Positions 20,262-43,740 of a stretch of 64,000 bases of DNA are shown here, piece by piece (positions within the stretch are counted from its first letter, which is position 1; each line of letters begins with the position of its first letter). Below the pieces are notes generated by a model. That model did not search any database. It saw only the letters and a program-made list of their open reading frames with translations, and had not been told where the DNA came from. Both the position numbers and the translations under genes were made by a program. The DNA lies in the NCBI GenBank assembly GCA_018820315.1, contig JAHJOQ010000092.1:6591-70590 (forward strand), given 5' to 3'. The DNA comes from Candidatus Zixiibacteriota bacterium (GTDB lineage Bacteria; Zixibacteria; MSB-5A5; JAABVY01; JAHJOQ01).

Positions 20262-20795
20262 TCACTCACTGGTCAGTTTCACAGTCTCGACAGTTTTCGT
20301 GGTGTAGACTGCATCCCGGTCGATTTCACCATTGCCGCCACTGATCAGAAAGCCAAGCCCAAGCAGCCATGAAATAAACTTCTTGCTCTTGCCTTTGTTT
20401 TCGAGCTTGCCTGCAAGTTTGATCGGGGCTCCGTCAGTCGCCTTGAATGCTCCCTCAGCCAACAAACTGACAAATGCGACTTCGATGTAGCCCGGTTTGC
20501 CTCGCTTGCCGTTCTTCTGCACTTTCGTAACAACGGCTCTGCTGGAGGCTCCCTCGGCGACAATAGTGCTGTCATCAACGACTATCGCCTCTGCAAGAGC
20601 GAGTACCAGGGAATCACCTTTCTCCAGATTTTCTGACGATATCCTATCATCACTGACAAACCTGAGCTTGACTTCAGTGTCCTTTATAACCCTGACCGTG
20701 ATTCCAGCGTCTGCGCTGGGCACGAAGAAGGCTGCTGAGAACAGGAAAAGCAGAACTGCCGAAAAAACAAGTCTTGTGATCGTTACCATTTTCAT
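20262..20795 (-). CDS. periplasmic/secreted hypothetical protein (cleavable signal peptide, no Cys) at the distal end of the T6SS locus
   Basis: MKMVTITRLVFSAVLLFLFSAAFFVPSADA signal peptide. No lipobox. Lys-rich C-terminal amphipathic segment. Confidence 0.5.
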   Translation of the reverse strand: MKMVTITRLVFSAVLLFLFSAAFFVPSADAGITVRVIKDTEVKLRFVSDDRISSENLEKGDSLVLALAEAIVVDDSTIVAEGASSRAVVTKVQKNGKRGKPGYIEVAFVSLLAEGAFKATDGAPIKLAGKLENKGKSKKFISWLLGLGFLISGGNGEIDRDAVYTTKTVETVKLTSE

Positions 20796-20828: not shown

Positions 20829-23024
20829 CTATTCGAGTACCGGAAGTCTATCACCGAGGCTTGGATTGAATTGAATCTTGACACTCTTTCCGAGATTGTC
20901 GAAGACCACGCCCTTCTCCATATCAAACAGTGAGTACTTGTCATCCAGAAGAGCAATGTCGCTAGGATCCTTGCCTCTGTCGCAATTCTTGTCGGCGGCA
21001 CAGAAAACTATGTGAATGTCATCTCCTATCTTCCATTCCAGTTCCCCAGTATCACCCTGGAAAGTCTCTCCCAACTTTTCCCACTGCGGAGCCTTCCCGT
21101 CATCGGTGACTTCGATGTAGAGCGCACCCTGATCCGGAACAGTGACAACTTTGTAATTGAATGTCTGTCGTTTTTTGGACCAGTTCTTTGCCGCGCTCAG
21201 ATAGCGACTCACCTTGGCAGCGTCACTGGAACCGAGCTGCCCCTGCAGATCCTGAAGAGTCCTCACGGCGTCGTCTAAGCGGTATCCTGGTTCATTGTTC
21301 CCGTTTATCACGTCAACAAGGTCCTCAAGCTTAGATCCAGCCTGTCTTGACTCCACCACGCGTACCTTGGTCACTTTCAGAGCCTGCAGCGCACCCATCA
21401 GGGCTACTTCGCCCTTGCTCAGTTCGCCCTCGAAATATGTCTTGTCCGATTCGATCTGCTCGGTGATTTGCGATAGAGGGAGAGTGTCGGCTTTAGCATT
21501 GATATAGATCTTGAACAGGCTCCAGTACCATAGCGATCGATCACTTCTTTTGAAAAGAACGGAACTTGAGTCACCCGTATGAAACTCTGCGAGATCGCCT
21601 TCCAGCGCGATATGATTCTCGTTGAGCTTGGGGATGGTATCCTTCGGATTCGCTGTCGGCCACTGTGATGAATCTGCCACGACCGCCGCGAAACGATTTA
21701 TCGCACCATCAAGCTTCTCTATGGCATCCCGGATATTGAAGTTTCTGTAAGTCTCCGATATCGTTCTTGCCACGGGCGAGAACTTCGGAAACAGCCACTT
21801 CACCGTGAGTGCTCTCGAATACCGATCGAACTTGCTTATTATGAGTGGACGCTCCTTGTCAGTGACACTCAGATACTGGCCGGAGTGTCCTTCAAGTATG
21901 TTGTCTTCAACCTTCGTTGTCTGCGGAAGCAGGAACTGGAAGTGATACAGATTCGGAATCGAATACAGCACAATCCATAGGATGCTGACAGTGACGACAA
22001 ATCTCGTAAATTTGCGAACTCTGGTGATCGCCCGGTTCCTCATTACCGATTTCAGCATCCAGTAGAACGGTTCCTGCAGACCGACCGGTCTGAGTATCCT
22101 CGGAGGCTTGTAAATCGACCGTCCGACATCAGTGCCGACCTTCTCCGGCGATTGCCCGGTGCATGAGAGGAAGAAGACCTGGAAATTAAGCGTTCTTCGG
22201 ACGATGATCTTAAGGAACTCCTTCATCTTGACCAGAATAGTTCTGACCGATCCTGCCCATTCGGAATTTGACGCGATTTTGTTGCTGCTGAGAACTTTGT
22301 CGAGAAAAACTTCAAATTCCTCAGAGAAGAACTGCTCGTCTTCGGGGCGTACAAGTACTGTCTGGCTCTCACCTGTGAAGCCGGGGAGGACGTCCGCTTT
22401 TGTGATCACGAGCGCAACCGGAATTGGCATCTGAGAACTTAGAGGTGCCAATCGTTCCAGCATTGTGATGAAGGAGGCGACATGCGCCTGGCTTTCCAAT
22501 TCTGCGCCGAGCAGCTTGGGATCATAGAAAAACATGATGCCGTGGGCACCATCCATGAAGTCGATGACCTTCTCTTTGAGTTCACCGCCTTCCCTGATGG
22601 AGACCGCTTTGCCTTCGTAGTCATATGTCACTACAGATAGCTTCTCATCGCGATCGAGGATAGCGTTGAATTGAAGCAGTCTCTCACCTTCGGTAGGATC
22701 GGGAAACTTCTGATCGCCTCGCATGTCAACTATCGTTCCGACGGCTGAAGTGCTGCCGAGACCCCAGATGTGCCTGTAGTTGACAAGGAATTCGCTTGCT
22801 GTAGCGCTGTCTGTCACCGATATCTGAAGGTTCTTCGATACCTTGCTGTCCTCATGCAGCGTAGTGAAATAAACGGATTTGCCCGAATTTGTGTGACCAT
22901 AAACGCCGATTCGGATTCCTGAAGGCCATTTGTACTTGGCTACCGGGGCAGGCCCCTTCTTCCTGGAGGAGGCTTTGAATATCTTCTTGAAGAACTTGAA
23001 TACTTTGGTAGCTGCTTTTATCAT
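20829..23024 (-). CDS. T6SS membrane-complex candidate: N-terminal P-loop GTPase-like domain, single central TM, about 370-aa periplasmic domain (TssM/IcmF-like, shortened)
   Basis: G1 GHTNSGKS at aa 43-50 and G4-like ITKAD. TM FTRFVVTVSILWIVLYSIPNLY near aa 335. Position next to the TssL-like gene at the end of the T6SS core operon. Confidence 0.4.
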   Translation of the reverse strand: MIKAATKVFKFFKKIFKASSRKKGPAPVAKYKWPSGIRIGVYGHTNSGKSVYFTTLHEDSKVSKNLQISVTDSATASEFLVNYRHIWGLGSTSAVGTIVDMRGDQKFPDPTEGERLLQFNAILDRDEKLSVVTYDYEGKAVSIREGGELKEKVIDFMDGAHGIMFFYDPKLLGAELESQAHVASFITMLERLAPLSSQMPIPVALVITKADVLPGFTGESQTVLVRPEDEQFFSEEFEVFLDKVLSSNKIASNSEWAGSVRTILVKMKEFLKIIVRRTLNFQVFFLSCTGQSPEKVGTDVGRSIYKPPRILRPVGLQEPFYWMLKSVMRNRAITRVRKFTRFVVTVSILWIVLYSIPNLYHFQFLLPQTTKVEDNILEGHSGQYLSVTDKERPLIISKFDRYSRALTVKWLFPKFSPVARTISETYRNFNIRDAIEKLDGAINRFAAVVADSSQWPTANPKDTIPKLNENHIALEGDLAEFHTGDSSSVLFKRSDRSLWYWSLFKIYINAKADTLPLSQITEQIESDKTYFEGELSKGEVALMGALQALKVTKVRVVESRQAGSKLEDLVDVINGNNEPGYRLDDAVRTLQDLQGQLGSSDAAKVSRYLSAAKNWSKKRQTFNYKVVTVPDQGALYIEVTDDGKAPQWEKLGETFQGDTGELEWKIGDDIHIVFCAADKNCDRGKDPSDIALLDDKYSLFDMEKGVVFDNLGKSVKIQFNPSLGDRLPVLE

Positions 23025-23063
23025 GGTATGTTCACGGCACCGGATTTAGGGTCTCTGTCCGTG

Positions 23064-23987
23064 TTATCCTCCGATTCCTTCCTCTACATTCGTGGCTCTT
23101 TCTCTGAGTTGCTCAAGCTTGGTGTCGGTATATGTACTCCAGAGAACGGGAACAGCTACTGCAGCAAGAAGAAAGAGTATGATGATCATCGAGTAAAACA
23201 AATATGCCGGCTTGCGCTGCGAGATAATCAATCTCAGGTAACGTCCACTCAGGAACGCTCCTTTGATCTTACGGAACAGCTCACCGAACCAGCCAGCAAC
23301 TCGTGCCCAGAAATCGCCTTTCTTCAGGTAACCCCACTCCGACAACAACTGCTTAAAGAGTCTATTCTTCGAACCGAGCTTCGTGAATGAATCGATCCTC
23401 AGCAGGTGAAACTCGAGGGATGCTCTGTCCTTAAGGAGATCCTCACCGAGTTCCTGGCGTCGCCGAGCAAGCTCAAGAAACTTCATCGGATCGCTCATCG
23501 AATTGAATGCCTCAGGCGTGAGGTCGCCTCTCAGGCGCTTGCCGAAGGTGTTAAGGAATCGGGCTATCTCCCGCAGGAAAAATGCGTTTAACTGATAGTT
23601 GTCTTTAAGGCTTCCCGGTTTGCAGAGCATGGGTACGAGGTGATTCTCGAAGAATGGCACATCCTGCTTCACGGCTCTGAGCCCGCGGCAATGCGAATAG
23701 GCTTGATTCGAACGGCCGTCAGTATCCGCCTCAGACTCGAAGTACGTGATAAGTATCTGGACTGCAAACTGCCTGAGGTCCGATGTTGTCAGAGGATTCT
23801 CTCGCACCCGGTCAAGCAGAAAGTAATCAAGCTCGACAGCCTGGTCGCGCTGCTGACGAAGCGGCTGGAAGACAGTATAGACACCGTTGTAGGTCTGAAA
23901 GAACGCTTCAGTCTTGAAGCTCGAGTACTTAGTCTCGTAAGTGTTGATGTATTTAAATAAGTCTTCTACGTAGTTCTTCATTTTCAT
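23064..23987 (-). CDS. T6SS membrane-complex candidate: cytoplasmic domain with single C-terminal TM anchor (TssL/DotU-like architecture)
   Basis: 307 aa, soluble about 260-aa N-terminal domain. Then YLFYSMIIILFLLAAVAVPVLW TM and a short tail, as in tail-anchored TssL. Placed directly after tssK. Confidence 0.4.
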   Translation of the reverse strand: MKMKNYVEDLFKYINTYETKYSSFKTEAFFQTYNGVYTVFQPLRQQRDQAVELDYFLLDRVRENPLTTSDLRQFAVQILITYFESEADTDGRSNQAYSHCRGLRAVKQDVPFFENHLVPMLCKPGSLKDNYQLNAFFLREIARFLNTFGKRLRGDLTPEAFNSMSDPMKFLELARRRQELGEDLLKDRASLEFHLLRIDSFTKLGSKNRLFKQLLSEWGYLKKGDFWARVAGWFGELFRKIKGAFLSGRYLRLIISQRKPAYLFYSMIIILFLLAAVAVPVLWSTYTDTKLEQLRERATNVEEGIGG

Positions 23988-24009: not shown

Positions 24010-25458
24010 TCAGACTGCATATATCATAAGATCAAGCTTGCCGAGTCCGGAGAACTTCTTCGGATCGCCAACTCCCCTAAATATCAAAGTAACCTTGTTC
24101 ACAGATGGCGACTGGAGCATATCCTGCGGCCGCAGCGCGACCTTCGCGCCGAAGGTGACAGCGTCAACCTTAACCGGATCTGTCTCGCCCAAGCCTCTGG
24201 CCTCATTGACTCCGAACCTGACCTGCATATTGGTCCATTCCGCTGTGCTGAACAAGTCTTTGGACATCAGAACGACTGTGTCCGAAACAGCCTGAGGATT
24301 CTCGATGTTTATCAGCAGGTAGCTGAGCTCTCCAACCTGTTCCAGATTGCACGACTGGAATGGGACCAGTCTGTATGTACGGTTGTTATATGTCAGGCTG
24401 TCTTCAGCGGAGGCCTCTCTTCCAAGTTCATCTTTCCTGATCTGAGCCAAGAAGCCAAGCACGCCCCGGAGATCGCTCAGGATTGAGTCGATCATGCCCA
24501 CCTGGTCCCTGATATTCTGGTGGTCGTACTCAGAAAGCAGAAATGAGTCTATCGCAGCCATGAACCTGCCTACGTCAGTGCTTCGCTCCTTCGTGAAGTG
24601 CTTCTCGTTCAGATAGTCCTTCAGGCCGGGCTGTAGATTTAAAAGAGTAGCGAGAACACGGAACAGACTCTTGAAATGAACCACCATGCTGAGCGGGTGC
24701 GATGCGTTCCTGCCAAGTACGAAGCTGTCGAGAGTAGAGGAAATGTGATATGCCATCAAGAAGACAGTATCCTTGAATGCTGCCTGAAGATCAGTCTTCT
24801 CGCCAGCGAGTAATCCCTCAGTCGTTATAGCTGCAAAGGCTCGAGACGACAGTGAGAGCAGACTCTCAAGCCTGTTGCGGAAGTCCGTTGCGGTCTTAAG
24901 CAAATTTTCGTCGGCATTGATCGTCACACAAGGCGGACAATATCCAACGGAGAAGTGTGCTTCTGATCCCGTAACCTTTAGTTCAGCAACCTGCACGAAC
25001 ATACTTTCGGGCATATTCGGCCTTTTCCCCAAATGAAGGCCATATCCTGCCGCCAAATAGGGCATCCTCGGGATCTCCTCCTCAGGATCAGGATCTCCAA
25101 CCTCTCGCTTCTCCGATGGCTTTACGCTGATGTAAACCGGCATTGGACCGTCCGTTAGATCAGTCTCCGCCTTCAAGCTCAGTTTCTCTGACTCGCTGAT
25201 GTCAATATAGCTGCCATTCGGAGTCAGTGCCTGACAGCGCGTAATGGTGACTCGCAGTTTGTCGCCACTGGCCATCATATCAATGCTCAGTGCAGGCTTG
25301 CCAGACAGTGACTTCCGTACCAAGCCGTAGCTGTCGGCAACATCGAGATTGTGCCAGCGTGCTAGATCTTCAAAGTAGCTTTCCTGGTCCTTGAGATGCT
25401 GCTGGGTTATCAGCATCCCATCCTTCCAGTTTACAGAATATAACTTCAAGTCACTCAT
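24010..25458 (-). CDS. tssK: type VI secretion system baseplate subunit TssK
   Basis: N-terminus KLYSVNWKDGMLITQQHLKDQE matches the TssK shoulder-domain signature (W.EGM.L.PQHF). 482 aa. Sits between tssG and the TssL-like gene. Confidence 0.62.
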   Translation of the reverse strand: MSDLKLYSVNWKDGMLITQQHLKDQESYFEDLARWHNLDVADSYGLVRKSLSGKPALSIDMMASGDKLRVTITRCQALTPNGSYIDISESEKLSLKAETDLTDGPMPVYISVKPSEKREVGDPDPEEEIPRMPYLAAGYGLHLGKRPNMPESMFVQVAELKVTGSEAHFSVGYCPPCVTINADENLLKTATDFRNRLESLLSLSSRAFAAITTEGLLAGEKTDLQAAFKDTVFLMAYHISSTLDSFVLGRNASHPLSMVVHFKSLFRVLATLLNLQPGLKDYLNEKHFTKERSTDVGRFMAAIDSFLLSEYDHQNIRDQVGMIDSILSDLRGVLGFLAQIRKDELGREASAEDSLTYNNRTYRLVPFQSCNLEQVGELSYLLINIENPQAVSDTVVLMSKDLFSTAEWTNMQVRFGVNEARGLGETDPVKVDAVTFGAKVALRPQDMLQSPSVNKVTLIFRGVGDPKKFSGLGKLDLMIYAV

Positions 25459-25528: not shown

Positions 25529-26437
25529 CTATACATAACTGGAATAGCCGAGATAACCACAATCTGCTTTTCTCCCGATCTGCATACGTTTTTGCTCGCC
25601 CATAACTTTTATTTGGCTGACAAGATTGCTTGGCATGCACAGGTCGAGCGCTCTTTCCACTTTTTCTCTTATACGCCCACCCGGCACAAACTCGCCGATG
25701 TCTTCAGTCTTCACATCTCTGATGATGACGTCATAGGCAGAATCGCACTCTGAAAATGACCGTCCCACGAGCGAGTTCACCGCGAGTCTGCTCTCTGCCG
25801 ACCCAAGACTGAAACAAATCCCTCTCGCTATTTCAAATGTTGATGACACGTTCTCGATGATTTGACACTCATATCCGGCCAGATGCGTGAGAACCTTCTC
25901 GACCAACTCAGCATTGCCTGCCCAATGATGGTACATGGGGAGAAGAGTGAACCAAAACATAAGCTCCGAAAATGAACCTGAATGTCGATCGGAATCAAAG
26001 TCGAATAACTTGAGAAAGCGGTGAAGATGCTCCTCTTCGACAAAACTAAGGCTGAATGTGAGAGCATCTCTCTTCGCAATGGACGTGTATCTTATCACCG
26101 AAGCATCAAAAGGTGCCATCAGTTTCCGGGATTGCATATCCCAATCGTCGGTGCGGGCAGTGGAGCCACTGAGTCCGTAAAAGAACTGATACGGCATATA
26201 ATCAACTGCACTATTGTAGCCTATCATCAGGACAATTTTGGAGCCAGGCCCGACTGGAGTTCCCGCCGAAGGATTCTGTTCAATAACTTCGCCCTTGTAG
26301 TTTTCGTACTCGCCGACAGCAAGTATATCTACACTGCGGATATCAATGCAGGTCTTGCCGAGAATGTTGAGAGCAGTGGCGAAGTGAAGCGGGTGCCGTC
26401 TACTGCAGAGCTCAGGCATTATCATTTCATCGGTCAT
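25529..26437 (-). CDS. tssG: T6SS baseplate subunit TssG-like (gp7/gp53-like), assigned mainly by size and position
   Basis: 302 aa. 4-nt overlap with the upstream tssF-like gene. Canonical tssE-F-G order. Confidence 0.4.
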   Translation of the reverse strand: MTDEMIMPELCSRRHPLHFATALNILGKTCIDIRSVDILAVGEYENYKGEVIEQNPSAGTPVGPGSKIVLMIGYNSAVDYMPYQFFYGLSGSTARTDDWDMQSRKLMAPFDASVIRYTSIAKRDALTFSLSFVEEEHLHRFLKLFDFDSDRHSGSFSELMFWFTLLPMYHHWAGNAELVEKVLTHLAGYECQIIENVSSTFEIARGICFSLGSAESRLAVNSLVGRSFSECDSAYDVIIRDVKTEDIGEFVPGGRIREKVERALDLCMPSNLVSQIKVMGEQKRMQIGRKADCGYLGYSSYV

Positions 26438-28104
26438 TGACGAGTGATCTCCACTTTGTACTGGGTGTTCACCGGCGACTTGGCCTTAAGGAAACTCGTC
26501 AGCCTAATGCGAAGCAACGCCACCTCATCTTCCGATAGAAAGTCATCCGCCTTCACGGTGGCGGTAACCGCTATACATCGGCGGACACCGCGTTTGGTTC
26601 TCTCCGTAGAGTTGCGGCACTCGGCCTTCTGTATTCTCGGATCGAATGTTCTCGTCCAGGCCGAGATCTCTTTGAAATTGACTGCGCGATCACGACTGCG
26701 CAACCTTCCAGTTGCTTCGATCATGATCTGCTCCGCAGTCTTAGCCGGAACGCCCCCTCGGGTGGGGAGGATGTTCGTCACAGCCGTCAGTCCGGGATGC
26801 TTCTCGTAAAGCTCATCAATCTTGCCCGCCTCTATCCCGTTCGCCCTGTTCTCCGCAGTTACAGAGTAGTTGACGGTAAGTGAATCGGGAGGGGGTTCGA
26901 AGAAGGGTGAGAAATCGAACCAGAGAACTTGACGATCTTCCCGCTCTTCGATTGAATAAACACGCGGCGACTTCTCCGTCTGGACCTCGTAGCTGGGTAG
27001 ATATGTCCTGCCGGAAGAATCAGTCACTTCCACGATTTCGAGCACACTTGAACTGCGATCCGGAAGTTCTATCTCGACAAGCATGTTACCGCCTGTATGT
27101 TTGAAAAGCGTCAGTTCGTTTTTGTTTGTTGCGACGAAGCAATTGAACCTGATTCCGAAACGAGATGTCAATTTGCCCCTGTCGCCCCCTTCGGGAAGAT
27201 CAAGCCTCATCCAGAAGAGGTCCTTTTCCGATGCAGTGATCTCGATTCCATTCTTGAACATCAAATCAGCTATCTCGCGATTCGCAGGACCCCTTTCCCA
27301 CGCCGACACAAAGCTCTCGGTAGGAATCACAAAGCTGTCTTCGAGGGGACTGTACAGGTCACCGCTGGAGCGCAGCCCACCCCAATCCGGAGTGGATTCA
27401 TCATCGTATCTGAAGATATCTTCGATGGATGTCTCCAGCCCAGGGCAGAATCGATTCACGGTGGAAAACGCTCCAGACTCCATACCGGGACACCAGTATG
27501 ACCATCGTAGCTGCCTGAGTACTTCGGATGATCCGTTCAGATATATTAGTGAGTCCTTGAAATCGGAAGCGATGCCCGAGTATTCGATCGCAACATAAAT
27601 CCGGTCGGCTACAATCGATGAAGCGGAGCCTGCTTTGTGCCCAGCCTGCGAGACAGGGGGGAGATCTTCGCAGACATCCTTCAGCTCGTCACCGTATCGT
27701 AACAGGACATGCCTAACCTTTGCGGACATTAGTTTCTCTGTCCGATGCGGCGAAAAGAAGAATGTCTCGCCCCCATCGCGTTTTTCTCTGTAAATGAAAA
27801 GCGTCCGAGGATCGACTTCGACAGTCGGATCGGTCAATTCACAGCTCATGATCGTGAATGCCGGCACTGGCCAGCGCTTACATTCCGGGAACAGGGATCT
27901 GATCAGTGAGCTCTTGGCGACTTCCCAGACCGACATTACCCGATCTTCGATTCTCTCCAGTTGATGCGCTTGCATCTGGAGTAGCATTCGCAGGATCGGG
28001 TCCAACCGCTCCGATGACTCAGGAACGTCGGGATTCCACTTCCGGAGTTCCCGATGCATCTCTGCAAAAATCTCATCTTTGTTTCTCGATTTCTCAGTCT
28101 TCAT
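26434..28104 (-). CDS. tssF: T6SS baseplate subunit TssF-like (gp6/baseplate-J-like), assigned by size and position
   Basis: 556 aa, immediately downstream of gp25-like tssE and upstream of the tssG-like gene. Confidence 0.42.
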   Translation of the reverse strand: MKTEKSRNKDEIFAEMHRELRKWNPDVPESSERLDPILRMLLQMQAHQLERIEDRVMSVWEVAKSSLIRSLFPECKRWPVPAFTIMSCELTDPTVEVDPRTLFIYREKRDGGETFFFSPHRTEKLMSAKVRHVLLRYGDELKDVCEDLPPVSQAGHKAGSASSIVADRIYVAIEYSGIASDFKDSLIYLNGSSEVLRQLRWSYWCPGMESGAFSTVNRFCPGLETSIEDIFRYDDESTPDWGGLRSSGDLYSPLEDSFVIPTESFVSAWERGPANREIADLMFKNGIEITASEKDLFWMRLDLPEGGDRGKLTSRFGIRFNCFVATNKNELTLFKHTGGNMLVEIELPDRSSSVLEIVEVTDSSGRTYLPSYEVQTEKSPRVYSIEEREDRQVLWFDFSPFFEPPPDSLTVNYSVTAENRANGIEAGKIDELYEKHPGLTAVTNILPTRGGVPAKTAEQIMIEATGRLRSRDRAVNFKEISAWTRTFDPRIQKAECRNSTERTKRGVRRCIAVTATVKADDFLSEDEVALLRIRLTSFLKAKSPVNTQYKVEITRQ

Positions 28105-28127
28105 CGCGAATAGCTTTCGTCCAGAGC

Positions 28128-28502
28128 CTAACCAATCACAAAGGTGCCCTCAAACTTCTTCTCTTCATCGTTATCACGGTAGCTGCCGGAGACTTTGATT
28201 GCAAGTCCTATTGGATGTGAGTTCGACCCCTCCACATTTGCGAAAGAGACCGACACATTGTAGAGCATTTTCTGGGATCGGTCAATTGCATTGCGTAGAC
28301 CTGCTCTGATATCGGATTTGTTGGCGGTATAGAGGTCGGAATATTCTTTGTCCCAAATTTCGCAGCCGTATCCCGGATCGAATGGTATTGAGCCGACTCT
28401 TGTGGAAAGAATCAGCCCGATAGAGTATCTTATTGATTCATCGAGCGCCGCTCTGGAGAGATAGCCCTCTCTCAGTACCAGAGGTAGTGACAGGTATTCC
28501 AT
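28128..28502 (-). CDS. tssE: T6SS baseplate wedge protein TssE (GPW/gp25 family)
   Basis: ESIRYSIGLILSTRVGSIPFDPGYGCEIWD matches the gp25 lysozyme-like core motif. 124 aa. Confidence 0.7.
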   Translation of the reverse strand: MEYLSLPLVLREGYLSRAALDESIRYSIGLILSTRVGSIPFDPGYGCEIWDKEYSDLYTANKSDIRAGLRNAIDRSQKMLYNVSVSFANVEGSNSHPIGLAIKVSGSYRDNDEEKKFEGTFVIG

Positions 28503-28512
28503 TGAGTAGTCA

Positions 28513-30231
28513 TCAGTTCAGTTTTATTGGATTGCCCTTAACATTCACCATTGCACCTTCTGCGTCGAAGGTCCCGGATGCCTTGCTCTCGAAATTAGCC
28601 GAAGCCTGAAGCTTCATATTGGCGCTGGATTTCATTTCGAGATCGGTTCCTGCCTCGACAGTGACCTTCTCGTCAGTTTTCAGCTTTATATTCTTGCCCT
28701 CGATCGAAATGTCACCATCTATGCTCTTAATTGTTATACTCGGTCCATCCATGGTTAGAATTATCTGATTGGCGCCATCAGGCGACGTTATTTCTATAGA
28801 CTCCTTGCCCGATTCATCATTGAATATAATCTCGTTTCCTGACTTTGTCGTGAACAGCTTGATTAGATTCTCTTCACTATTCGCTTTCGAATGTGGAGCG
28901 CCCTCGGAATTGTAAACCGAGCCGACCACCACTGGCCTCGATGGATCGCCGAATTCGAAGCCGACAAGGACTTCGTCATTGAGTTCCGGTATCCAGAAGG
29001 ATCCCCGATCTGAGCCAGCGTGCATTGTGGCATAACGCACCCAAGGTGTTTCATCGGAACCGCTCCAGGGAAACTTCACCTTTATTCGACCGAGCATATC
29101 CGGGTCATGGTTGTTGACAACGATTGCTGGCTGTAATTGAGTAATTTGGGGAGCCTTTCGGGACATGCCGGGAAAAGCCAGATCAAGAGGAGTGCATATG
29201 AATGTATTATGGTACTTCCCACTTTCATCAAAAATATGCTTTACGCCCTTGACCCAATAAGGTCGGTTAATCAGATCAGCCATCTCTCTGACAGTGATGG
29301 TATGACCGACCGCAACAGTCGGCATGATCGACTGTCCCTGGCAATTAATCATCCTGCCCATAGCGCTGGAACGAGCCGTCGTGAGAACCTGATCCAGCGA
29401 TCTTGAATCCGAAACCACAGGGGATTCTACAAAGCTGGGACTATCATATACTTGTGCCGAGGCAGTGGGGGAGAGGTCGGAGAGATCGGAGAGAGCGGCG
29501 GTCCTTGAGATAGATGAGGAATCATTGGAATAGCTTCTCGTCTGCTCATAGTTGTATACGGTCGACTTGAATTCCATTTGCTGAGTGCCGACGCCAAGCG
29601 CGAAGGCTCCAAGCGTCTGCCTCCATATCAGATCTTCATTCTCACGGCTGGAGGCTTCGATCAGTTTGAACTCTCCGCCATCATAATGAGCGAACTTGCC
29701 ATCTACACAGGCAAGCCTTTGGATGAAATCCCAGTCTGTTTCGCGGTATTGTACAACGAAGTTCAGGGTCCTGGCTGATGATTCCATATTTCCAACCGTT
29801 ATGGGATAGCCTCTGACCAATGCACCGATTATATCGCTTGCTGAGATTTCGTGATACAGTGCATTGCGCTTGCAGTCTTCCATCGCAATCGTCGGGCTGT
29901 GCGCCGTCACAATCACTCTGTTTAGCCCATCTATGCTGTTGTCAAGGCTGACTTCGGTGACAACTCCAATAAATTCGAGTTCCTTGGAGGCGTCGACCGT
30001 GCCACCAGTCGGAGATATTGTTACTGCGATGGATTGACCGAGGAAGTTTGTATATGTGCTCGGATCGTCAAAGTCAGCGGTGGCAGCCGTACGAGCGACT
30101 CTCTTGATTGTTACTTTTAGTACGTGATGGTCATTAATGGATTGGTTTAATTCAACCCCGGATATGAGATGGCGAATTTCGTTACCGGCGATTCTGATTT
30201 GGCAGTCAGCTGGGGTTTCGAGTACAGGCAT
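28513..30231 (-). CDS. vgrG: T6SS spike protein VgrG (TssI; gp27/gp5-like)
   Basis: Conserved gp5 OB-fold block HAGSDRGSFWIPELNDEVLVGFEFGDPSRPVVVGSVYN. 572 aa. C-terminal beta-helix-like repeats (SITIKSIDGDISIEGKNIKL...). Confidence 0.8.
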   Translation of the reverse strand: MPVLETPADCQIRIAGNEIRHLISGVELNQSINDHHVLKVTIKRVARTAATADFDDPSTYTNFLGQSIAVTISPTGGTVDASKELEFIGVVTEVSLDNSIDGLNRVIVTAHSPTIAMEDCKRNALYHEISASDIIGALVRGYPITVGNMESSARTLNFVVQYRETDWDFIQRLACVDGKFAHYDGGEFKLIEASSRENEDLIWRQTLGAFALGVGTQQMEFKSTVYNYEQTRSYSNDSSSISRTAALSDLSDLSPTASAQVYDSPSFVESPVVSDSRSLDQVLTTARSSAMGRMINCQGQSIMPTVAVGHTITVREMADLINRPYWVKGVKHIFDESGKYHNTFICTPLDLAFPGMSRKAPQITQLQPAIVVNNHDPDMLGRIKVKFPWSGSDETPWVRYATMHAGSDRGSFWIPELNDEVLVGFEFGDPSRPVVVGSVYNSEGAPHSKANSEENLIKLFTTKSGNEIIFNDESGKESIEITSPDGANQIILTMDGPSITIKSIDGDISIEGKNIKLKTDEKVTVEAGTDLEMKSSANMKLQASANFESKASGTFDAEGAMVNVKGNPIKLN

Positions 30232-30302
30232 ATGAACCTTTATTCAGATAATTGTCAGCCGGGCAGGGGATGTCCTCCTGCCCGGGCATAATCGAAAGAA
30301 AC

Positions 30303-30707
30303 TTATTCTTCCCAGCGGTTATCTATCGTCGCGTCACCGATCGTAAGGTCATGACAAGATATCTCGAAGTACTCGTGAATCTGGTCATCAGGACTGTTCT
30401 TGACGTGAGGGATCATCTCGATGTACTCCGTAATGAACCCCTCGTTCCACGTCAGCTCCTTCATCATCGCATCTGTTGGATTCTTGAAGGTCACCTTGCC
30501 GGCCTTCCAGTTTGGTGCGCTCGAATCCATTGCCCAACGAGCAATGTCTGACGTCTCGTCTGATTCTCTTCTGACCTTGATTGTGCCGGCATGAGCGCGG
30601 TCTGATGGACGGCCAGTTTCATCCTTGGCTGTGTACAGCCTGTAGCTGACCTCATAGACGTTCTTGTAGACGACGCCGTCGATTTCGAGAGTCGGTCTCC
30701 GTGCCAT
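30303..30707 (-). CDS. hcp: T6SS tube protein Hcp (TssD), Bacteroidetes/T6SS-iii sequence type
   Basis: LEIDGVVYKNVYEVSYRLY...GRPSDRAHAGTIKVRRESDETSD follows the pattern of FCB-type Hcp (L.IDG..Y...GRPS...GG.I...ES.E.S). 134 aa. Confidence 0.68.
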   Translation of the reverse strand: MARRPTLEIDGVVYKNVYEVSYRLYTAKDETGRPSDRAHAGTIKVRRESDETSDIARWAMDSSAPNWKAGKVTFKNPTDAMMKELTWNEGFITEYIEMIPHVKNSPDDQIHEYFEISCHDLTIGDATIDNRWEE

Positions 30708-30817
30708 AGTTTCTCTCCTTAGAATTCATTAGTGTTATGTTTCGCAACAAAACCTTAACATCCTGTTCCTGGCAGCAACAACTACCCTGACAGGAAGCTA
30801 TCTTGACTCACATTGGC

Positions 30818-32245
30818 TTACTTATCCTTTACGCTCGTCTGGTCATCCTGATTCCAGGCAGTGAACTCGATATTGAATGTCCTCGCTGGATATTTCGGAT
30901 TGAGCGCGACCTTAATATCGATCTCCTGACGCTTGCGCATCTCTTCATCAGCAAATATCTCGACGCGATAATCCTGAAGAATATTGTCACCGCCGCTAAT
31001 CGCTTTCATAAATTTGTCGATGTCGCGACGCATAGTGTCGACAAATTTCTGATCGATCACGGAGAACGTCTGTTTGTTCAGGTAATTGCGCAGAGTCTTA
31101 TACACATAATCGTATGTGCGACGAATGGAGTAGACGTTGAACGTCTCCTTGCTGAACAGTGTCGCGGCACCCATAGAAACTGCCGTGCCTTCAAAGCTGA
31201 CCATCGGGTTGACGCCTTTTTCATTTATCTTGCTGGCATCCGGCTGATTCGCCTTGAACCTCAGATACTTCGCATCGGCAATCTTCCCATGCTTGAAACC
31301 TGCCATCGGCTGCTGCATGCCGACTGTTGTGTCACCCTGGTACATCTTGCCGGCGACTGACGCTGACGGTGGTATCCACATGTCCTCGTCTTCGTACTGG
31401 TTCTGCTCGCGAGCCAGAAGGTAGTTCGCGAACACCGATACATACTGCTTGTAGTTGTCGATTCCGGGAAGGTTGGCGTAGTTTGGATCGTCGAGCATGT
31501 CCATGACTTCCTCGACACTCTCCAGATTGGGGAGGTCAGTCATGATGTGCAGCTTGTTCGGGAGACCGAGCTGTCGCGCGACGGTGTCAATGTTTTCGAC
31601 ACTGCCGAGATAACCGGGGATCACGGCCATCGAGAAGCAGTCTTTGATACTCCACTCGCGATAGAGATCGGCGACAGCTTTCGACAATTCCTCGAATTTC
31701 TCCTTGTCATCGGGATCGACCAGTTCCTCTCCGCTGACATTGGCGAAGTAGGCATTGACCTTCTCGTCCGGTTCCTGCTGGGCATTTGCGAAGAACTTGT
31801 CAATAGCGCGATAGGTCGTCTCAAGTTCGCGTGACTCCCTGTGCACTTTCTTCATATTCTTTTCGAGATTCGCCTCGAGCTTGGTAGACTGCTCATTAAG
31901 GCTCTTGCGGATGGTCTCGATATTTTCTTCCTTCGCGAAATTGTCTATCCAGATTCGCAGGCGCTCGGCGAGAAGTTTCCGTTGAGTTTCGAAGTCCTTC
32001 TTGGTCAGGAATTCTTTGCGCTGAAAGTCCTTCTTCGGATCGAGCCATTCTACGCCCCGAACGAGATCGCCATCAGTGGTCTTGAATGACGGAAGCAGTC
32101 CTGCCAGCTTCTTGAAATCACCGAATGTATCCCCCAGTATCGCCGCAAATTCCTCATCCGATACTTTCTCGACTTCGAGTGCTGGCTTTGCCGCGGCCGC
32201 CTCAGCAGCCTCTGCCTGTGGTTCCAATTTCTCTTCTTCACCCAT
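30818..32245 (-). CDS. tssC: T6SS contractile sheath large subunit TssC (VipB-like)
   Basis: 475 aa, acidic N-terminus. Immediately downstream of the tssB-like gene and upstream of hcp. Confidence 0.58.
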   Translation of the reverse strand: MGEEEKLEPQAEAAEAAAAKPALEVEKVSDEEFAAILGDTFGDFKKLAGLLPSFKTTDGDLVRGVEWLDPKKDFQRKEFLTKKDFETQRKLLAERLRIWIDNFAKEENIETIRKSLNEQSTKLEANLEKNMKKVHRESRELETTYRAIDKFFANAQQEPDEKVNAYFANVSGEELVDPDDKEKFEELSKAVADLYREWSIKDCFSMAVIPGYLGSVENIDTVARQLGLPNKLHIMTDLPNLESVEEVMDMLDDPNYANLPGIDNYKQYVSVFANYLLAREQNQYEDEDMWIPPSASVAGKMYQGDTTVGMQQPMAGFKHGKIADAKYLRFKANQPDASKINEKGVNPMVSFEGTAVSMGAATLFSKETFNVYSIRRTYDYVYKTLRNYLNKQTFSVIDQKFVDTMRRDIDKFMKAISGGDNILQDYRVEIFADEEMRKRQEIDIKVALNPKYPARTFNIEFTAWNQDDQTSVKDK

Positions 32246-32261
32246 CTATCTTCACCTCTTT

Positions 32262-32702
32262 CTATTCGCTCAAAAGATCGATGTAGTAAGCCATGACTTT
32301 CAGAAGAGCTTCTTTCTTGTCACTGTCCTGAAGGATCTTCTGCAGGGATTTGTTCTTCTTAAGCTGCTTGTCGAGATCGGACATCATCTCTTTGCTGTAA
32401 TATGTTTTCTGGAGATGCTCATTTTTCTCGATGAGTTCCTTGGACGTGAAATCTTTCATCGCCCGGATATCAAAGTCGCCGTTGACAGGCTCGCCGTCGG
32501 CAGTCTCCATCTCCACTGAGAAAGACGGCTGGAATTTCTCAAAGACTTCTTTGAGGTTGTTGCATCTCTTCGGTGCTACGTCGGCTTCCTCGCTGTTGTT
32601 GAGTTTTGCCGCGTACAACATCTTGTTGGAAGGGAGAAGTTCGACCGGGATAGAATCATCCCGTTGGATCTTCTCGGTCGCTCCCAAAATGAACTTCGCC
32701 AT
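32262..32702 (-). CDS. tssB: T6SS contractile sheath small subunit TssB (VipA-like)
   Basis: 146 aa. Architecture and C-terminal helical segment (FTSKELIEKNEHLQK...KEALLKVMAYYIDLL) resemble VipA. Adjacent to tssC. Confidence 0.55.
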   Translation of the reverse strand: MAKFILGATEKIQRDDSIPVELLPSNKMLYAAKLNNSEEADVAPKRCNNLKEVFEKFQPSFSVEMETADGEPVNGDFDIRAMKDFTSKELIEKNEHLQKTYYSKEMMSDLDKQLKKNKSLQKILQDSDKKEALLKVMAYYIDLLSE

Positions 32703-32733: not shown

Positions 32734-33831
32734 TTATTTACTTCTCTCAGTGGTGAACGTGTAGTTGTCGTCCTTTACTCCTATGTTAACACGATCTCCA
32801 GCTTTTATCTTACCGGTTATTATATCAACTGACAGTCTGTTGACGATATCTCGCTCAATGATTCTCTGGATCGGTCTTGCTCCGAGCTCGAATGTGTAAC
32901 CATCCTTCGCCAGTTTCGACTTCGCTTCCTTGCTGAGAGTGGCCTCGATATTCTGGTCAGATAGCATACCGCAGAGATTGTTGAATTCAAGACCCGCTAT
33001 CACTTCTACCTGCTCCGGCGTGAATGTGTGATAGATAATGATGTCATTGAGACGGTTCAGGAACTCCGGTCTGAATTTGCTGAAAAGGAAAGTGCGAACT
33101 TCATCCATATCGACATCGCGACCCTCTCTATCAGCATCCAGAATCTTGTCTGCGGCATAGTTCGACGTTAGTACGACGATCGTGTTGGAAAAGTCGACGG
33201 TTCGATTCTGTCCATCTGTCAGCCTGCCATCATCAAGAAGCTGCAACAGAACGTTAAAGACATCGGGGTGAGCTTTCTCGGTCTCATCAAAAAGCACGAT
33301 AGAGAACGGTTTCCGTCGCACCGCTTCCGTCAGAACACCTCCAGCCTCATATCCGACATATCCGGGCGGAGCGCCTATCAGCTTGGCGACAGAGTGCGAC
33401 TCCATAAATTCCGACATGTCGAGTCTAACCATTGCGTTCTTGTCGTCGAAGAGAAACTCCGCAAGCAGCTTTGGCAGATATGTCTTGCCGGTGCCGGTAG
33501 GTCCGAGAAACAAGAACGACCCGACTGGTCTGTTTGCAAGCTTCAGTCCAGCCCTTGCCTTGCGAATCGCATTGGCTATAGCTTCAATCGCCTTCTCCTG
33601 CCCGACGATTTTCCTGGACAGGAATGATTCCATATTGATCAGACGGTCTTTTTCTGCTGTCAACATCTTGGAGACAGGTATGCCGGTTCGGCGGGCGACG
33701 ACAGAAGCAACATCAGCGTCCTCAATTGTGCGCTCTATGGATTCAGCCACTTTCTTCAATGGCGCGAACTTCCTCACCTTCTCGTCGAAATCCTTCTTCA
33801 GGAGTTCAATGTTTGTGACATCTATAGGCAT
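32734..33831 (-). CDS. clpV: ClpV/ClpB-type AAA+ ATPase, C-terminal half (M-domain remainder + NBD2 + C-terminal small domain)
   Basis: VGQEKAIEAIANAIRKARAGL sensor block. Walker A GPTGTGKT. Walker B VLFDETEKAH. Sensor-2 region LDDGRLTDGQNRTVDFSNTIVVLTSN. Start ATG shares one A with the stop of the upstream half (TAATG). Confidence 0.8.
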   Translation of the reverse strand: MPIDVTNIELLKKDFDEKVRKFAPLKKVAESIERTIEDADVASVVARRTGIPVSKMLTAEKDRLINMESFLSRKIVGQEKAIEAIANAIRKARAGLKLANRPVGSFLFLGPTGTGKTYLPKLLAEFLFDDKNAMVRLDMSEFMESHSVAKLIGAPPGYVGYEAGGVLTEAVRRKPFSIVLFDETEKAHPDVFNVLLQLLDDGRLTDGQNRTVDFSNTIVVLTSNYAADKILDADREGRDVDMDEVRTFLFSKFRPEFLNRLNDIIIYHTFTPEQVEVIAGLEFNNLCGMLSDQNIEATLSKEAKSKLAKDGYTFELGARPIQRIIERDIVNRLSVDIITGKIKAGDRVNIGVKDDNYTFTTERSK

Positions 33832-35288
33832 TATTCCACCCCCTCAGAAGCTTCGACCCGATGTCCCCAGAATTCCTGAAGGCGATCGAAATTTCTGGAG
33901 AAGTCATCATACTTCTCCTGAAGTTCATCGAATTTCTCTTTCTCCTTGTCGGGATTCTTGCCTTCCAAAGCTTCTATTAGTCCTTTCAACTCAGCGATGT
34001 TGGTCTCGATCTCAACGACTCGAGTTTTGCTGAACTCTTCTTTGACCGCAAGCTCTGATGCAGATTCATCAACGAGGTCGAGGGCGATGTCAGGGAGGTT
34101 CCGTTCGCTGAGATATCGCATCGCATATCTTACTGAACCTGTTATAGCCTCATCCGTGAACGATATCTTGTGATGGTCCTCGTACTTCGCTATCACGCCC
34201 TTAACTATCCTTACAGCGTCATCGAAATTAGGCTGCTCGACTTTCACCCGCTCGAATCTCCTGTCGAGTGCCTTGTCTTTTTCGATGTACTTGGTGTATT
34301 CTTCCTCGGTGGTAGCACCGATCAGCCGCATATGGCCGCGCGCGAGGGCCGGCTTGATGAGGTTTGCCGCATCCATGCCGCCCGATACGTTACCAGCACC
34401 TACCAACGTGTGGATTTCATCGATGAACAGGATAATCTTGCCACCGGATTTGACAACTTCGCTGACTAATGACTTGAATCGCTCTTCGAATTCGCCCTTG
34501 TACTTCGCACCCGCAACGAGCGATCCCATGTCGACAGCCATGACTTTAACATTCTGGAGGGCTTTCGGAACCTCGTTAGCGATGACCGCCTGAGCAAAGC
34601 CTTCGACAATAGCGCTCTTACCGACTCCTGCACCGCCTACCAGTGAGGGGCTATTTTTTCTGCGCCTCAGAAGAATCTGGATCAGCTGCTGAAGCTCCTT
34701 TTCGCGGCCGATCATCGGGTCGAATTCGCCTGCAGCCGCCTGGTTAGTCATGTCGATACAATACTTGAGCGTGCCTGCGATTTCTTTCTTACCTTGCGCC
34801 TCGGCGCCTGTCCCGGACAAAGCAGCACCTGCCGTTGCGATCTCCTCAACAGACTTGGTGTCTGCTATTGCTCGATAGATATCTTCTTTCTTGATATCGA
34901 CCTTTTCACGCACATAAGGGGAGAGGCCCGACTTCGGATCGAATACTGCTATGAAAATGTGCTCGGGCTCAACAAGAGGATCGAACAGCTTAGCTTTCTC
35001 TTCCAGAGCATCGGTCAAAGTATCCTGCACGGCAGGGGAGACTGTCTGGTTCTCTTTGGTCGATGACCTCTTCGGAATCTCTTTCAGGTGCTCCTCCGCG
35101 ATCGCTTCGATGAATGCGACACTCTTGCCAAGCTGATTCAGTATCGACTCGACTTCAGAGGAATCATGTCGAATCGTCGCGATAAGGAGGTGTTCGACGT
35201 AGATTTCCGGGTGCTTGAATGATGCTGCTACTTCACGGGCGACTCGAATTACCGCCCGGGAATCAGCCGAATAACTTGCGATATCCAT
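33831..35288 (-). CDS. clpV: ClpV/ClpB-type AAA+ ATPase, N-terminal half (Clp_N domain + NBD1 + start of coiled-coil M-domain)
   Basis: Clp N-domain repeats. NBD1 Walker A LVGGAGVGKSAIVEG. Walker B ILFIDEIHTLVGAG. C-terminal coiled coil ending at a TAA that overlaps the next ATG. Confidence 0.8.
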   Translation of the reverse strand: MDIASYSADSRAVIRVAREVAASFKHPEIYVEHLLIATIRHDSSEVESILNQLGKSVAFIEAIAEEHLKEIPKRSSTKENQTVSPAVQDTLTDALEEKAKLFDPLVEPEHIFIAVFDPKSGLSPYVREKVDIKKEDIYRAIADTKSVEEIATAGAALSGTGAEAQGKKEIAGTLKYCIDMTNQAAAGEFDPMIGREKELQQLIQILLRRRKNSPSLVGGAGVGKSAIVEGFAQAVIANEVPKALQNVKVMAVDMGSLVAGAKYKGEFEERFKSLVSEVVKSGGKIILFIDEIHTLVGAGNVSGGMDAANLIKPALARGHMRLIGATTEEEYTKYIEKDKALDRRFERVKVEQPNFDDAVRIVKGVIAKYEDHHKISFTDEAITGSVRYAMRYLSERNLPDIALDLVDESASELAVKEEFSKTRVVEIETNIAELKGLIEALEGKNPDKEKEKFDELQEKYDDFSRNFDRLQEFWGHRVEASEGVE

Positions 35289-41118: not shown

Positions 41119-42027
41119 TTACTTCTCTAATGACCTGATGAAGCGTTCCGCCTCTTTAACTTGTCCTTCACTATATATCAGAAACTCATCTGTTTCGAAC
41201 GAGAAGGGTCTGTCATACCATACAGCGATAAGATTGATTGCTGCGTCGCATACACGGGCGAACTCCGGGTCCGCTTCGGGATGGCCGATGTCATACGCAT
41301 CTGAAGTATCGGCGAGGGCTGGGAGGAGACGTGAAGCGAGTCGCTTATCACTTATGTATTCCAGAGCAAGAATGACATCATAGCGACCCTCAAGAGGGGG
41401 AGTATCGATCTGAGACGCAAATTCATTCTTGAATTCCTCGTCGCCAAGCCTGGCCATGGCCAGTTTGATCTGTTTTCCCACGTTTGCATCGTCTTCCTGA
41501 TCAAGTTGTTTCCGGAGAGGCTTCATCGCACTCGCATCATCGATTCTACCGATCAATCGAGCTACGCCGCCCCTCACCACCGCATCTGTGTTGCTTAGGT
41601 TTGCTATCAAACCCTGCAGGATAGCACTGCTGATGCGAGAGCGGATGGACTGCAGAGCCGACGCGCGGACTTGAGCATCTTTGTCCCACAGGGCTTCGAC
41701 CAGAACAGTCGGGACACTCTCATCGTCGGTGAGCACCACGCAACTGAGAGCAAGCTCTCTGGTCTCGGGGTTCTCATTCTTAAGCAGCTCCAATAAGACC
41801 GGCATTGCAGGTGAACCGATCTCCTCGGCCTGGAGGAGTGCGTCATCGCTATCTTCCAGAACGGCTTTTCTAAGGCTATCGAGTTCCACTTTGTGTTCCC
41901 CTCTGCTTCTTTGCTGATCTCGGCCACCACATGCGATGTGGACGGCAACTACCAACGTCAGCACCAAGAGATACCAAGTGCTGACTCTCACGAATTTCAT
42001 CCTGTTCCTGCTGTGCCTATCAATCAA
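41119..42027 (-). CDS. HEAT/PBS-lyase repeat protein with N-terminal signal anchor (periplasmic; immunity-protein candidate)
   Basis: N-terminal TM VSTWYLLVLTLVVAVHIA. Repeated HEAT-like helical pairs (PETRELALSCVVL..., DAVVRGGVARLIGRI..., GKQIKLAMARLGD). 4-nt overlap with the upstream effector gene. Confidence 0.55.
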   Translation of the reverse strand: MIDRHSRNRMKFVRVSTWYLLVLTLVVAVHIACGGRDQQRSRGEHKVELDSLRKAVLEDSDDALLQAEEIGSPAMPVLLELLKNENPETRELALSCVVLTDDESVPTVLVEALWDKDAQVRASALQSIRSRISSAILQGLIANLSNTDAVVRGGVARLIGRIDDASAMKPLRKQLDQEDDANVGKQIKLAMARLGDEEFKNEFASQIDTPPLEGRYDVILALEYISDKRLASRLLPALADTSDAYDIGHPEADPEFARVCDAAINLIAVWYDRPFSFETDEFLIYSEGQVKEAERFIRSLEK

Positions 42028-43733: not shown

Positions 43734-43740
43734 GAATCAG

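Follow-up and report, generated by a model that had tools for sequence, protein, structure and literature searches.

A tssK-linked GTPase module as a candidate membrane complex of T6SS-iii-like loci in Zixibacteria and relatives

We know of only two T6SS membrane complexes that have been described, TssJLM of Pseudomonadota and TssNQOPR of Bacteroidota. The locus analysed here, in a 64,000-nucleotide stretch of a Zixibacteria metagenome-assembled genome (MAG; "the window"), encodes a T6SS and is a natural experiment in how a phage-like tail plugs into the envelope. Which proteins could provide the anchor?

A T6SS-iii-like locus with three genes after tssK

The locus carries a full T6SS gene set on one strand with short gaps, and three genes, named here p307, p731 and p177 after the lengths of their products, follow tssK directly. 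The features, all on the minus strand, are:

20262..20795, minus: p177, small exported protein (signal peptide of the signal-peptidase-I type), directly after p731
20829..23024, minus: p731, bitopic membrane GTPase of 731 aa (ORF, motifs, hydropathy, AF2 model, homologues)
20832..21944, minus: C-terminal domain of p731, residues 361-731, predicted periplasmic (AF2 secondary structure)
21945..22010, minus: single transmembrane (TM) helix of p731, residues 339-360 (hydropathy), preceded by an Arg/Lys-rich stretch
22095..22928, minus: G domain of p731, residues ~33-310 (P-loop 22875-22898, DYEG 22611-22622, TKAD 22392-22403)
23064..23987, minus: p307, tail-anchored all-alpha protein of 307 aa, TM residues 263-283 (nt 23139-23201)
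24010..25458, minus: TssK baseplate subunit, directly upstream of p307
25529-26437, minus: TssG, baseplate gene (block 25529..28502)
26434-28104, minus: TssF-like, baseplate gene (same block)
28128-28502, minus: TssE/gp25, baseplate gene (same block)
28513-30231, minus: VgrG (block 28513..32702)
30303-30707, minus: Hcp/TssD, T6SS-iii type (same block)
30818-32245, minus: TssC, T6SS-iii type (same block)
32262-32702, minus: TssB, by comparison with Bacteroidota TssB (same block)
32734..35288, minus: ClpV/TssH, split over two genes with a one-base overlap (TAATG) at 33831
41119-42027, minus: HEAT-repeat putative lipoprotein (Pfam; lipobox-like N-terminus; block 41119..44943)
42024-43733, minus: PG_binding_1 protein (Pfam; same block)
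43741-44943, minus: PAAR protein (Pfam; same block)

The proposal of an iii-type system in the initial annotation, which was made from the sequence alone, is borne out. TssC matches PF17541 (2.5e-69) and Hcp matches PF17642 (1.7e-19) in Pfam; TssC shares 28% and TssB 31% identity with its Bacteroidota counterpart, and a BLAST of both against T6SS-i proteins gave no match. Besides iii-type TssB, TssC and Hcp, the locus has TssE, F, G and K, ClpV, VgrG and PAAR, which together make it T6SS subtype iii-like. TssK was recognized by TIGR03353 (2.3e-13) and by hhalign to T6SS-i TssK (probability 97.9%). ClpV searched by tblastn against plasmids returned ClpB matches only. Terminator-like sites are no more frequent at the locus than in shuffled sequence, and the gaps around the p307-p731 pair are 22-39 nt.

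Among the proteins of the locus, no Pfam or NCBIfam match to TssJ, TssL or TssM, or to TssN, TssO or TssR, was found, nor did the locus offer a membrane-complex candidate besides the p307-p731-p177 module. The HEAT-repeat putative lipoprotein and the PG_binding_1 protein are candidates for further envelope components; at a related locus, L097, their homologues are found directly after the p177 homologue.

Architecture and conservation of the module

The two open reading frames proposed as a pair lie exactly where they had been placed, and they are real genes, not chance ORFs: 253 database homologues of p731 and 299 of p307 were found, nearly all equal in length to their queries. All motifs of a GTPase are intact in p731, with Walker A/G1 (GHTNSGKS) at residues 43-50, DYEG (G3/Walker B) at 135-138 and TKAD (G4) at 208-211, and the nucleotide-binding residues G43, G48, K49, T208, K209 and D211 are invariant among homologues. 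G1 and TKAD had thus been read correctly, whereas their placement at the extreme N-terminus was a little imprecise, the G domain covering residues ~33-310. Hydropathy shows a single peak, at 339-360, with 371 residues beyond it, in agreement with the claim of one central TM segment and a domain of about 370 residues. The segment falls inside a long helix (317-378) of the AF2 model (pLDDT 78.8). From hydropathy and the positive-inside rule, the N-terminus is predicted inside and the C-terminus outside, which would place the C-terminal domain in the periplasm. That domain is modelled as a helical region (392-617) and a beta domain (620-720), with pLDDT mostly 80-93; it matched no Pfam or NCBIfam family and differs from lineage to lineage. 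A TIGR03348 (TssM) match in this region (E 0.005) was dismissed as noise because it occurred in only 1 of 22 family members, and a PilN hit from a PDB sequence search with the family profile (E 0.22) was judged not meaningful.

As had been claimed, p307 is soluble but for a C-terminal anchor: its sole hydrophobic segment, 263-283, ends ~24 residues before the C-terminus, and the AF2 model (pLDDT 80.1) contains helices only. A Mis12 hit from a PDB profile search (E 0.003 over a helical stretch) was judged a chance match. The signal peptide of p177 is of the AxA type and has no lipobox, and hhalign against five TssJ sequences gave a probability of 1.1%; by these sequence features p177 is not TssJ, an outer-membrane lipoprotein.

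The module is conserved together with the T6SS. In species-representative genomes whose loci extend 2.6 kb or more upstream, TssK and p307 precede p731 in 66 of 67 cases, and where the upstream sequence reaches 9.3 kb or more, TssC, Hcp and VgrG are present in 53 of 54; of the 73 loci with enough sequence downstream, 69 encode p177. An observation on the other side is that in one Zixibacteria genome (L021) p731 and p177 have no T6SS genes next to them. Median best-segment identities are 47% for p731 and 53% for p307, compared with 55% for TssK and 50% for TssF, so that the pair and the core baseplate proteins diverge at similar rates. A homology search with a profile of the divergent group gave 16 proteins. 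Six divergent lineages with readable context each encode, in this order, TssK, a ~315-aa p307 homologue and a GTPase-TM protein, always in T6SS-iii-like loci. Their GTPase proteins are 17-45% identical to one another; the homology of p307 in these lineages has a probability of 99.2%, and phmmer agrees. Homologues of p177 are present in L092, L095, L097 and L098. The module is carried by Zixibacteria and by MAGs labelled Krumholzibacteriota, Latescibacterota or Calditrichota. Co-occurrence with T6SS-iii-like loci elsewhere, which had been proposed as a check, is found, and the subfamily is T6SS-linked wherever its context can be read, so the notion of a GTPase family unconnected to T6SS falls away.

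Variable cargo genes are common near the core genes of T6SS loci, and p307 and p731 could in principle be such cargo, an effector/immunity or chaperone pair outside the apparatus. This general habit is all that speaks for cargo, as no tool result here favours it. Position, length and order are, however, invariant over at least 66 loci and the six divergent lineages, the pair is as well conserved as core baseplate proteins, and no toxin or immunity domain was found in the pair; we consider a cargo role very improbable.

The G domain, DO-GTPases and TssM

Judged from profile matches, the GTPase of p731 is a DO-GTPase-type TRAFAC domain, and the NTPase of TssM/IcmF is a weaker relative. DO-GTPase2 was matched by all 22 family members (best E 1.2e-8, Pfam), with the window p731 itself at 19.5 bits, under the 27-bit gathering score. 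The TRAFAC G domain that marks DO-GTPases (PF19993 or PF19975) is present; many p731 homologues carry a precomputed PF19993 match, and the L092 homologue clears the gathering scores of both DO-GTPase1 and DO-GTPase2. In hhalign the p731 family aligned to distant DO-GTPase proteins with a probability of 100%. The second commonest Pfam family was IcmF-related_N (PF14331), with weak matches in 12 of 22 members (best E 1.9e-3) and a score of 15.7 bits for the window p731 (gathering score 25 bits). Against TssM-N, hhalign gave a probability of 46% for the Zixibacteria family and 89.6% (E 1.9e-6) for the broad family. Single-sequence controls gave 83% and 74% for TssM, 5.7% for HRAS and 15% for ARF1, suggesting that the G domain is clearly closer to the TssM/IcmF NTPase than to Ras or Arf. 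In the profile check proposed for the pair, IcmF-related_N appeared for p731, weakly and below its gathering score, and DotU did not appear for p307.

DO-GTPases are predicted to serve as switches within conflict systems, and some have a C-terminal TM segment and extracellular domains (Kaur et al. 2020, PMC7159879). The G domain is far nearer to them than to TssM, and in L092, L095 and L097, which are distant T6SS-linked relatives, GAP1-N2 or GAP1-M is encoded directly downstream of the GTPase. The role may therefore be regulatory and not structural, in which case p731 with p307 would mainly be a switch licensing T6SS firing or assembly, a threshold module co-opted from a conflict system, and other proteins would span the envelope. 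Several observations argue against it. GAP1-N, GAP1-M and GAP1-C were not detected in the window locus, where no cognate GAP1 follows the GTPase, or in the Zixibacteria loci, and no p307 family member had a GASH or GAP1 match; p731 has a large, well-folded extracytoplasmic domain; and the locus encodes no other inner-membrane anchor. A 288-aa protein at 39811-40677, considered as a GAP1 partner, proved unrelated to the GAP1-M encoded in L097. We regard a mainly regulatory role as unlikely; switching and anchoring are in any case compatible, because TssM does both.

Proposed role and comparison with known systems

We consider it reasonably likely that p307, p731 and p177 form the envelope-anchoring membrane complex of the T6SS-iii-like apparatus in Zixibacteria and relatives. 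From gene structure, motifs, predicted topology, G-domain fold, synteny and family relationships we infer the following arrangement. p307 would be a cytoplasmic helical protein tethered to the membrane by its C-terminal anchor, and p731 an inner-membrane GTPase whose 371-residue helical and beta domain extends into the periplasm. The cytoplasmic parts of both may dock the TssK-TssFGE baseplate. The periplasmic domain of p731 and p177, probably with the PG-binding and HEAT-lipoprotein partners, would span and open the envelope. GTP binding and hydrolysis by p731 probably gate baseplate docking, or else assembly of tube and sheath; the analogy is with T6SS-i, where nucleotide binding by TssM controls complex formation (PMC3346141).

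A bolder form of this proposal is that the module is an independently evolved third membrane complex, widespread in uncultured FCB-group phyla, whose GTPase shares a specific ancestor both with the NTPase of TssM/IcmF and with the DO-GTPase switches of conflict systems. We offer it tentatively and with some doubt. If so, nucleotide-gated anchoring of contractile tails would be an old and recurrent solution, and TssM a DO-type GTPase fused to an unrelated periplasmic module. A link between the NTPase of TssM, which is poorly understood, and the DO-GTPase family makes the origin and role of a nucleotide switch in T6SS anchoring testable. The genes for p307, p731 and p177 also provide three markers that could let current T6SS detection models find such systems in metagenomes.

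Compared with TssM of T6SS-i, p731 shows a similar layout, with a predicted inner-membrane location, a cytoplasmic P-loop domain, a TM helix and then a periplasmic alpha-plus-beta region, and its gene lies near tssK. The p731 family and TssM have in common the motif PVxLVxTKxDxLxGF and a long helical insert between G4 and G5, the region to which profile-profile similarity is confined. TssM, however, crosses the membrane three times, with two N-terminal TM helices and a third that follows the NTPase; p731 has the one at 339-360, and its G domain starts at ~33 with no TM segment before it, just as the initial annotation had noted. At the sequence level, p731 shows none of the periplasmic IcmF-related and IcmF C-terminal domains; a remote TssM-like fold in its C-terminal domain is conceivable. 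Like TssL/DotU, p307 has an all-helical cytoplasmic domain and a single C-terminal TM anchor, and its gene adjoins both tssK and the NTPase-TM gene; it belongs to the DotU cytoplasmic domain neither by sequence family nor by fold.

The order TssK-p307-p731 mirrors tssK-tssL-tssM of T6SS-i. Together with the TssL-like tail anchor and a G domain nearer to TssM than to Ras or Arf, this order would suit true, extremely diverged TssL/TssM orthologues, inherited with the T6SS, that lost the two N-terminal TM helices and shortened the periplasmic domain. We think such descent improbable. Of the suggestion that the pair are TssL/TssM analogues, the analogy in position and topology holds, and homology is, provisionally, confined to the GTPase domain at most. 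The idea of a hybrid origin stands, because an iii-type tail is combined with a tssK-adjacent position and a weak but specific similarity to the TssM NTPase. Overall, the initial interpretation is partly supported.

With the DO-GTPase/GAP1 systems (PMC7159879; PF19975, PF19993, PF20013, PF20014) the module shares a G domain within or beside the same TRAFAC family. The Zixibacteria locus differs in having no zinc ribbons, second GTPase, GAP1 or FNIII partner, and in its T6SS context, T6SS being unmentioned in Kaur et al. 2020 (PMC7159879).

The TssNQOPR system (Bongiovanni et al. 2024, PMC10781749) resembles the present one in its iii-type TssB, TssC and Hcp, in a baseplate connector by tssK and in lacking TssJLM. 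It differs in that TssN, which has five TM helices, lacks an NTPase, whereas the module here has a GTPase. All five proteins of that complex were undetected at the locus: when the families of p307, p731 and p177 were aligned by hhalign to Tenacibaculum TssN, O, P, Q and R, probabilities reached at most 2.2%. In their survey of complete genomes, Bongiovanni et al. (2024, PMC10781749) found T6SS-iii in Bacteroidota alone, and an iii-type tail with a distinct, conserved GTPase module in Zixibacteria and neighbouring phyla points to a wider host range. Our literature searches found no description of the p307-p731-p177 module, and gave nothing relevant on a new T6SS subtype or on the T6SS of Zixibacteria or other FCB phyla. 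We provisionally regard the module as analogous in function to TssJLM and TssNQOPR, any ancestry shared with TssM being limited to the GTPase domain; it looks like a third T6SS membrane complex of a previously undescribed kind, with a membrane-tethered GTPase at its core.

The T6SS locus and its last three genes

The T6SS gene set is complete and runs on the minus strand from 44943 down to 20262, with the genes for a 307-aa tail-anchored protein (p307) and a 731-aa GTPase-TM protein (p731) near its end; both ORFs are precisely as the initial annotation had described them. Its products, listed as transcribed, are: PAAR protein, PG_binding_1 protein, HEAT-repeat protein, 288-aa protein, LysM-BACON-metallophosphatase protein of 1060 aa, pentapeptide-repeat protein, ClpV (two overlapping genes), TssB, TssC, Hcp, VgrG, TssE, TssF-like protein, TssG, TssK, p307, p731 and p177, a protein of 177 aa.

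Features of the window
45392-49245, plus strand: two large proteins, divergent from the PAAR gene
41119-43733, minus strand: PG_binding_1 protein (569 aa) and HEAT-repeat protein (302 aa)
36604-39786, minus strand: 1060-aa LysM-BACON-metallophosphatase protein, inside the T6SS locus
35460-36665, minus strand: pentapeptide-repeat protein, between the 1060-aa protein and ClpV
32734-35288, minus strand: split ClpV/TssH, two genes, junction at 33831
23064-23987, minus strand: p307, ORF of 307 aa
20829-23024, minus strand: p731, ORF of 731 aa
22968-23018, minus strand: conserved N-terminal basic helix of p731, residues 3-19

TssC matched PF17541 (2.5e-69) and Hcp matched PF17642 (1.7e-19). Identity to Tenacibaculum/Parabacteroides proteins is 28% for TssC and 31% for TssB, and BLAST found no match for either among T6SS-i proteins; judged by sequence, both sheath and tube belong to the Bacteroidota T6SS-iii type. 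Within the locus itself, we detected neither of the known T6SS membrane complexes, TssJLM (T6SS-i) or TssNQOPR (T6SS-iii), and no protein matched the NCBIfam TssN, TssO or TssR models. The hhalign probability was 1.1% for p177 against TssJ, and at most 2.2% for the p731, p307 and p177 families against Tenacibaculum TssN, O, P, Q and R. Gaps between tssK, p307, p731 and p177 are 22-39 nt, and terminator-like sites are no more frequent than in shuffled sequence.

The p731 sequence is 100% identical to KKH67_08815 (NCBI), which places the window in a candidate division Zixibacteria MAG. It carries the motifs GHTNSGKS (residues 43-50), DYEG (135-138) and TKAD (208-211), and hydropathy gives one hydrophobic segment (339-360), with an Arg/Lys-rich stretch ahead of it and 371 residues behind. 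The AlphaFold2 model (mean pLDDT 78.8) consists of a G domain (residues ~36-310), a long helix holding the TM segment (317-378), a helical region (392-617) and a beta domain (620-720). Ahead of the G domain lies a helix, KAATKVFKFFKKIFKASSRKK, that is conserved, strongly basic and amphipathic in appearance; its model confidence is low, and its K7, K14, G15 and A18 are almost invariant. It may bind the membrane or a partner. The single hydrophobic segment of p307 (residues 263-283) is near its C-terminus. The signal peptide of p177 is of the signal-peptidase-I type and lacks a lipobox. Database homologues of p731 (n=253) and p307 (n=299) are nearly always of equal length, and the P-loop and TKxD residues of p731 are invariant; p731 and p307 are real genes under constraint.

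The ClpV halves comprise Clp_N, AAA D1 and lid (485 aa) and the AAA_2 D2 (365 aa), and their stop and start overlap as TAATG at 33831, which resembles translational coupling of a split gene more than a frameshift; in L097, a locus of a distant lineage, ClpV is one gene. The 1060-aa protein, whose homologues lie 2-3 kb downstream of p177 in the related loci L062, L066, L069 and L078, might serve as an effector or as an accessory protein acting on the cell wall. The pentapeptide-repeat protein has a lipobox-like N-terminus (...GGVSC), and its top NCBIfam match, far under threshold, is the anti-phage Hailong effector HalA. One of the two divergent proteins combines a Peptidase_C10 domain with an Inhibitor_I69 prodomain and thrombospondin type-3 repeats, the other a C39-like peptidase with a dockerin and TSP_3 repeats. 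Both might be cargo, or else secreted proteases with no connection to the T6SS.

Conservation of the module behind TssK

Scanning one genome per species, we found relatives encoded in 97 stretches and retained 80 loci. All carriers are MAGs, labelled mostly Zixibacteria, some Krumholzibacteriota, Latescibacterota, Calditrichota or GN15, and many 'Ignavibacteriales', several of these labels being doubtful. Comparison of the window proteins with the loci by tblastn revealed a fixed order, ClpV-TssB-TssC-Hcp-VgrG-TssE-TssF-TssG-TssK-p307-p731-p177. TssK and p307 are present, with the pair behind TssK, in 66 of the 67 loci having at least 2.6 kb upstream. Where 9.3 kb or more is available upstream, 53 of 54 loci have TssC, Hcp and VgrG, and of the 73 with room downstream, 69 have p177. 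The sole exception among the 67, L021 (Zixibacteria chromosome CP070766.1, 9989-12770), has p731 and p177 homologues in another neighbourhood, with T6SS genes absent from the 10 kb upstream; it is either a split locus or a remnant.

Median best-segment identities were 47% for p731, 53% for p307, 55% for TssK and 50% for TssF. The pair thus diverges at about the rate of TssK and TssF, behaving as a core part rather than as cargo.

The GTPase family of p731

A Pfam-wide scan of 22 family members matched DO-GTPase2 in all 22 (best E 1.2e-8) and IcmF-related_N in 12 (best E 1.9e-3); any further family, including MMR_HSR1 and the YcjX-like DUF463, matched at most two. A profile search across 1.84 billion representative proteins returned 154 matches at E<=1e-3, and ten distant ones scanned against Pfam gave DO-GTPase families in seven and IcmF families in none.

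The representative search also revealed divergent relatives (617-1053 aa; 17-45% identical among themselves), whose homology to p731 is confined to the N-terminal 340-440 residues. They have a P-loop at about residue 40, hhVITKADxLxGF at about 200, a TM at about 330, and unrelated C-terminal domains. All six with readable context (P0279, P0395, P0296, P0286, P0261 and P0308) lie in T6SS-iii-like loci where TssK is followed by a ~315-aa protein and then by the GTPase-TM protein. The ~315-aa proteins are full-length p307 homologues, anchor included (hhalign 99.2%; phmmer 6e-18 to 6e-27), and p177 homologues follow in four of the six. In locus L098 (2295-3260), the p307 homologue is divided between two neighbouring frames, one at 2295-3005 and one at 3009-3260, which suggests a frameshift or assembly error.

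We compared these families with TssM by hhalign, using nine T6SS-i sequences from annotated replicons, a set of modest profile depth. The positive control, Zixibacteria TssK against T6SS-i TssK, scored 97.9% (E 4.6e-13). The Zixibacteria p731 family scored 46% against TssM (E 2e-4), and the broad GTPase family 89.6% against the TssM N-domain (E 1.9e-6) and 100% against distant DO-GTPase proteins (E 1e-50), which themselves scored 97.4% against the TssM N-domain (E 9e-12). Against single sequences, the broad family scored 83% and 74% with two TssMs, 12.5% with a third, 5.7% with HRAS and 15% with ARF1. The alignment with TssM begins at the post-Walker B strand, passes through the shared motif PVxLVxTKxDxLxGF and then a long helical insert, and ends at the G5 strand. 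We read p731 as a DO-GTPase-type protein with the TssM NTPase as its next nearest relative, the kinship with the nine TssMs being suggestive. Common ancestry with TssM would extend at most to the G domain of p731, and its C-terminal domain matches no Pfam or NCBIfam family. A TIGR03348 match there, seen in just one of the 22 members, was discarded as noise.

In predicted conflict systems, DO-GTPases have GAP1 as their cognate partner; the study that defined these systems does not mention T6SS (Kaur et al. 2020, PMC7159879). GAP1 proteins follow the membrane GTPase in three loci of relatives: GAP1-N2 in L092 (12504-15443) and L095 (12492-15518), of 979 or 1008 aa, and GAP1-M in L097 (12404-13198; 264 aa). 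None was found in a Zixibacteria locus. The main alternative to a structural part is that p731 is primarily a regulatory 'switch' inherited from DO-GTPase/GAP1 systems, a role compatible with a structural one.

A proposed third type of membrane module

The above results show a conserved three-gene module behind tssK, whose products are a G domain tethered to the membrane and intact in its motifs, a helical protein with a tail anchor, and a small exported protein. On the predicted topology and protein contacts, p307 and the p731 G domain would lie on the cytoplasmic side and dock the TssK/TssFGE baseplate, and GTP binding and hydrolysis would gate docking or the recruitment of tube and sheath. 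The predicted periplasmic domain and p177 would form a trans-envelope conduit, perhaps joined by the PG_binding_1 protein and the HEAT-repeat protein, a putative lipoprotein. The HEAT-repeat protein has a lipobox-like N-terminus, ending ...VHIAC. In L097 (13780-16411), homologues of both proteins lie immediately behind the p177 homologue, suggesting that those at the opposite end of the window locus are perhaps further envelope components; possible roles within the module are as its peptidoglycan-anchoring and outer-membrane parts.

Full-text searches of open-access papers and bioRxiv preprints turned up neither a T6SS in these phyla nor a GTPase-based anchor. Among complete genomes, T6SS-iii has been found in Bacteroidota only, always with TssNQOPR (Bongiovanni et al. 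2024, PMC10781749). Here a iii-type tail occurs in other phyla of the FCB group with a different module, and we classify the system as a T6SS carrying a third type of membrane module.
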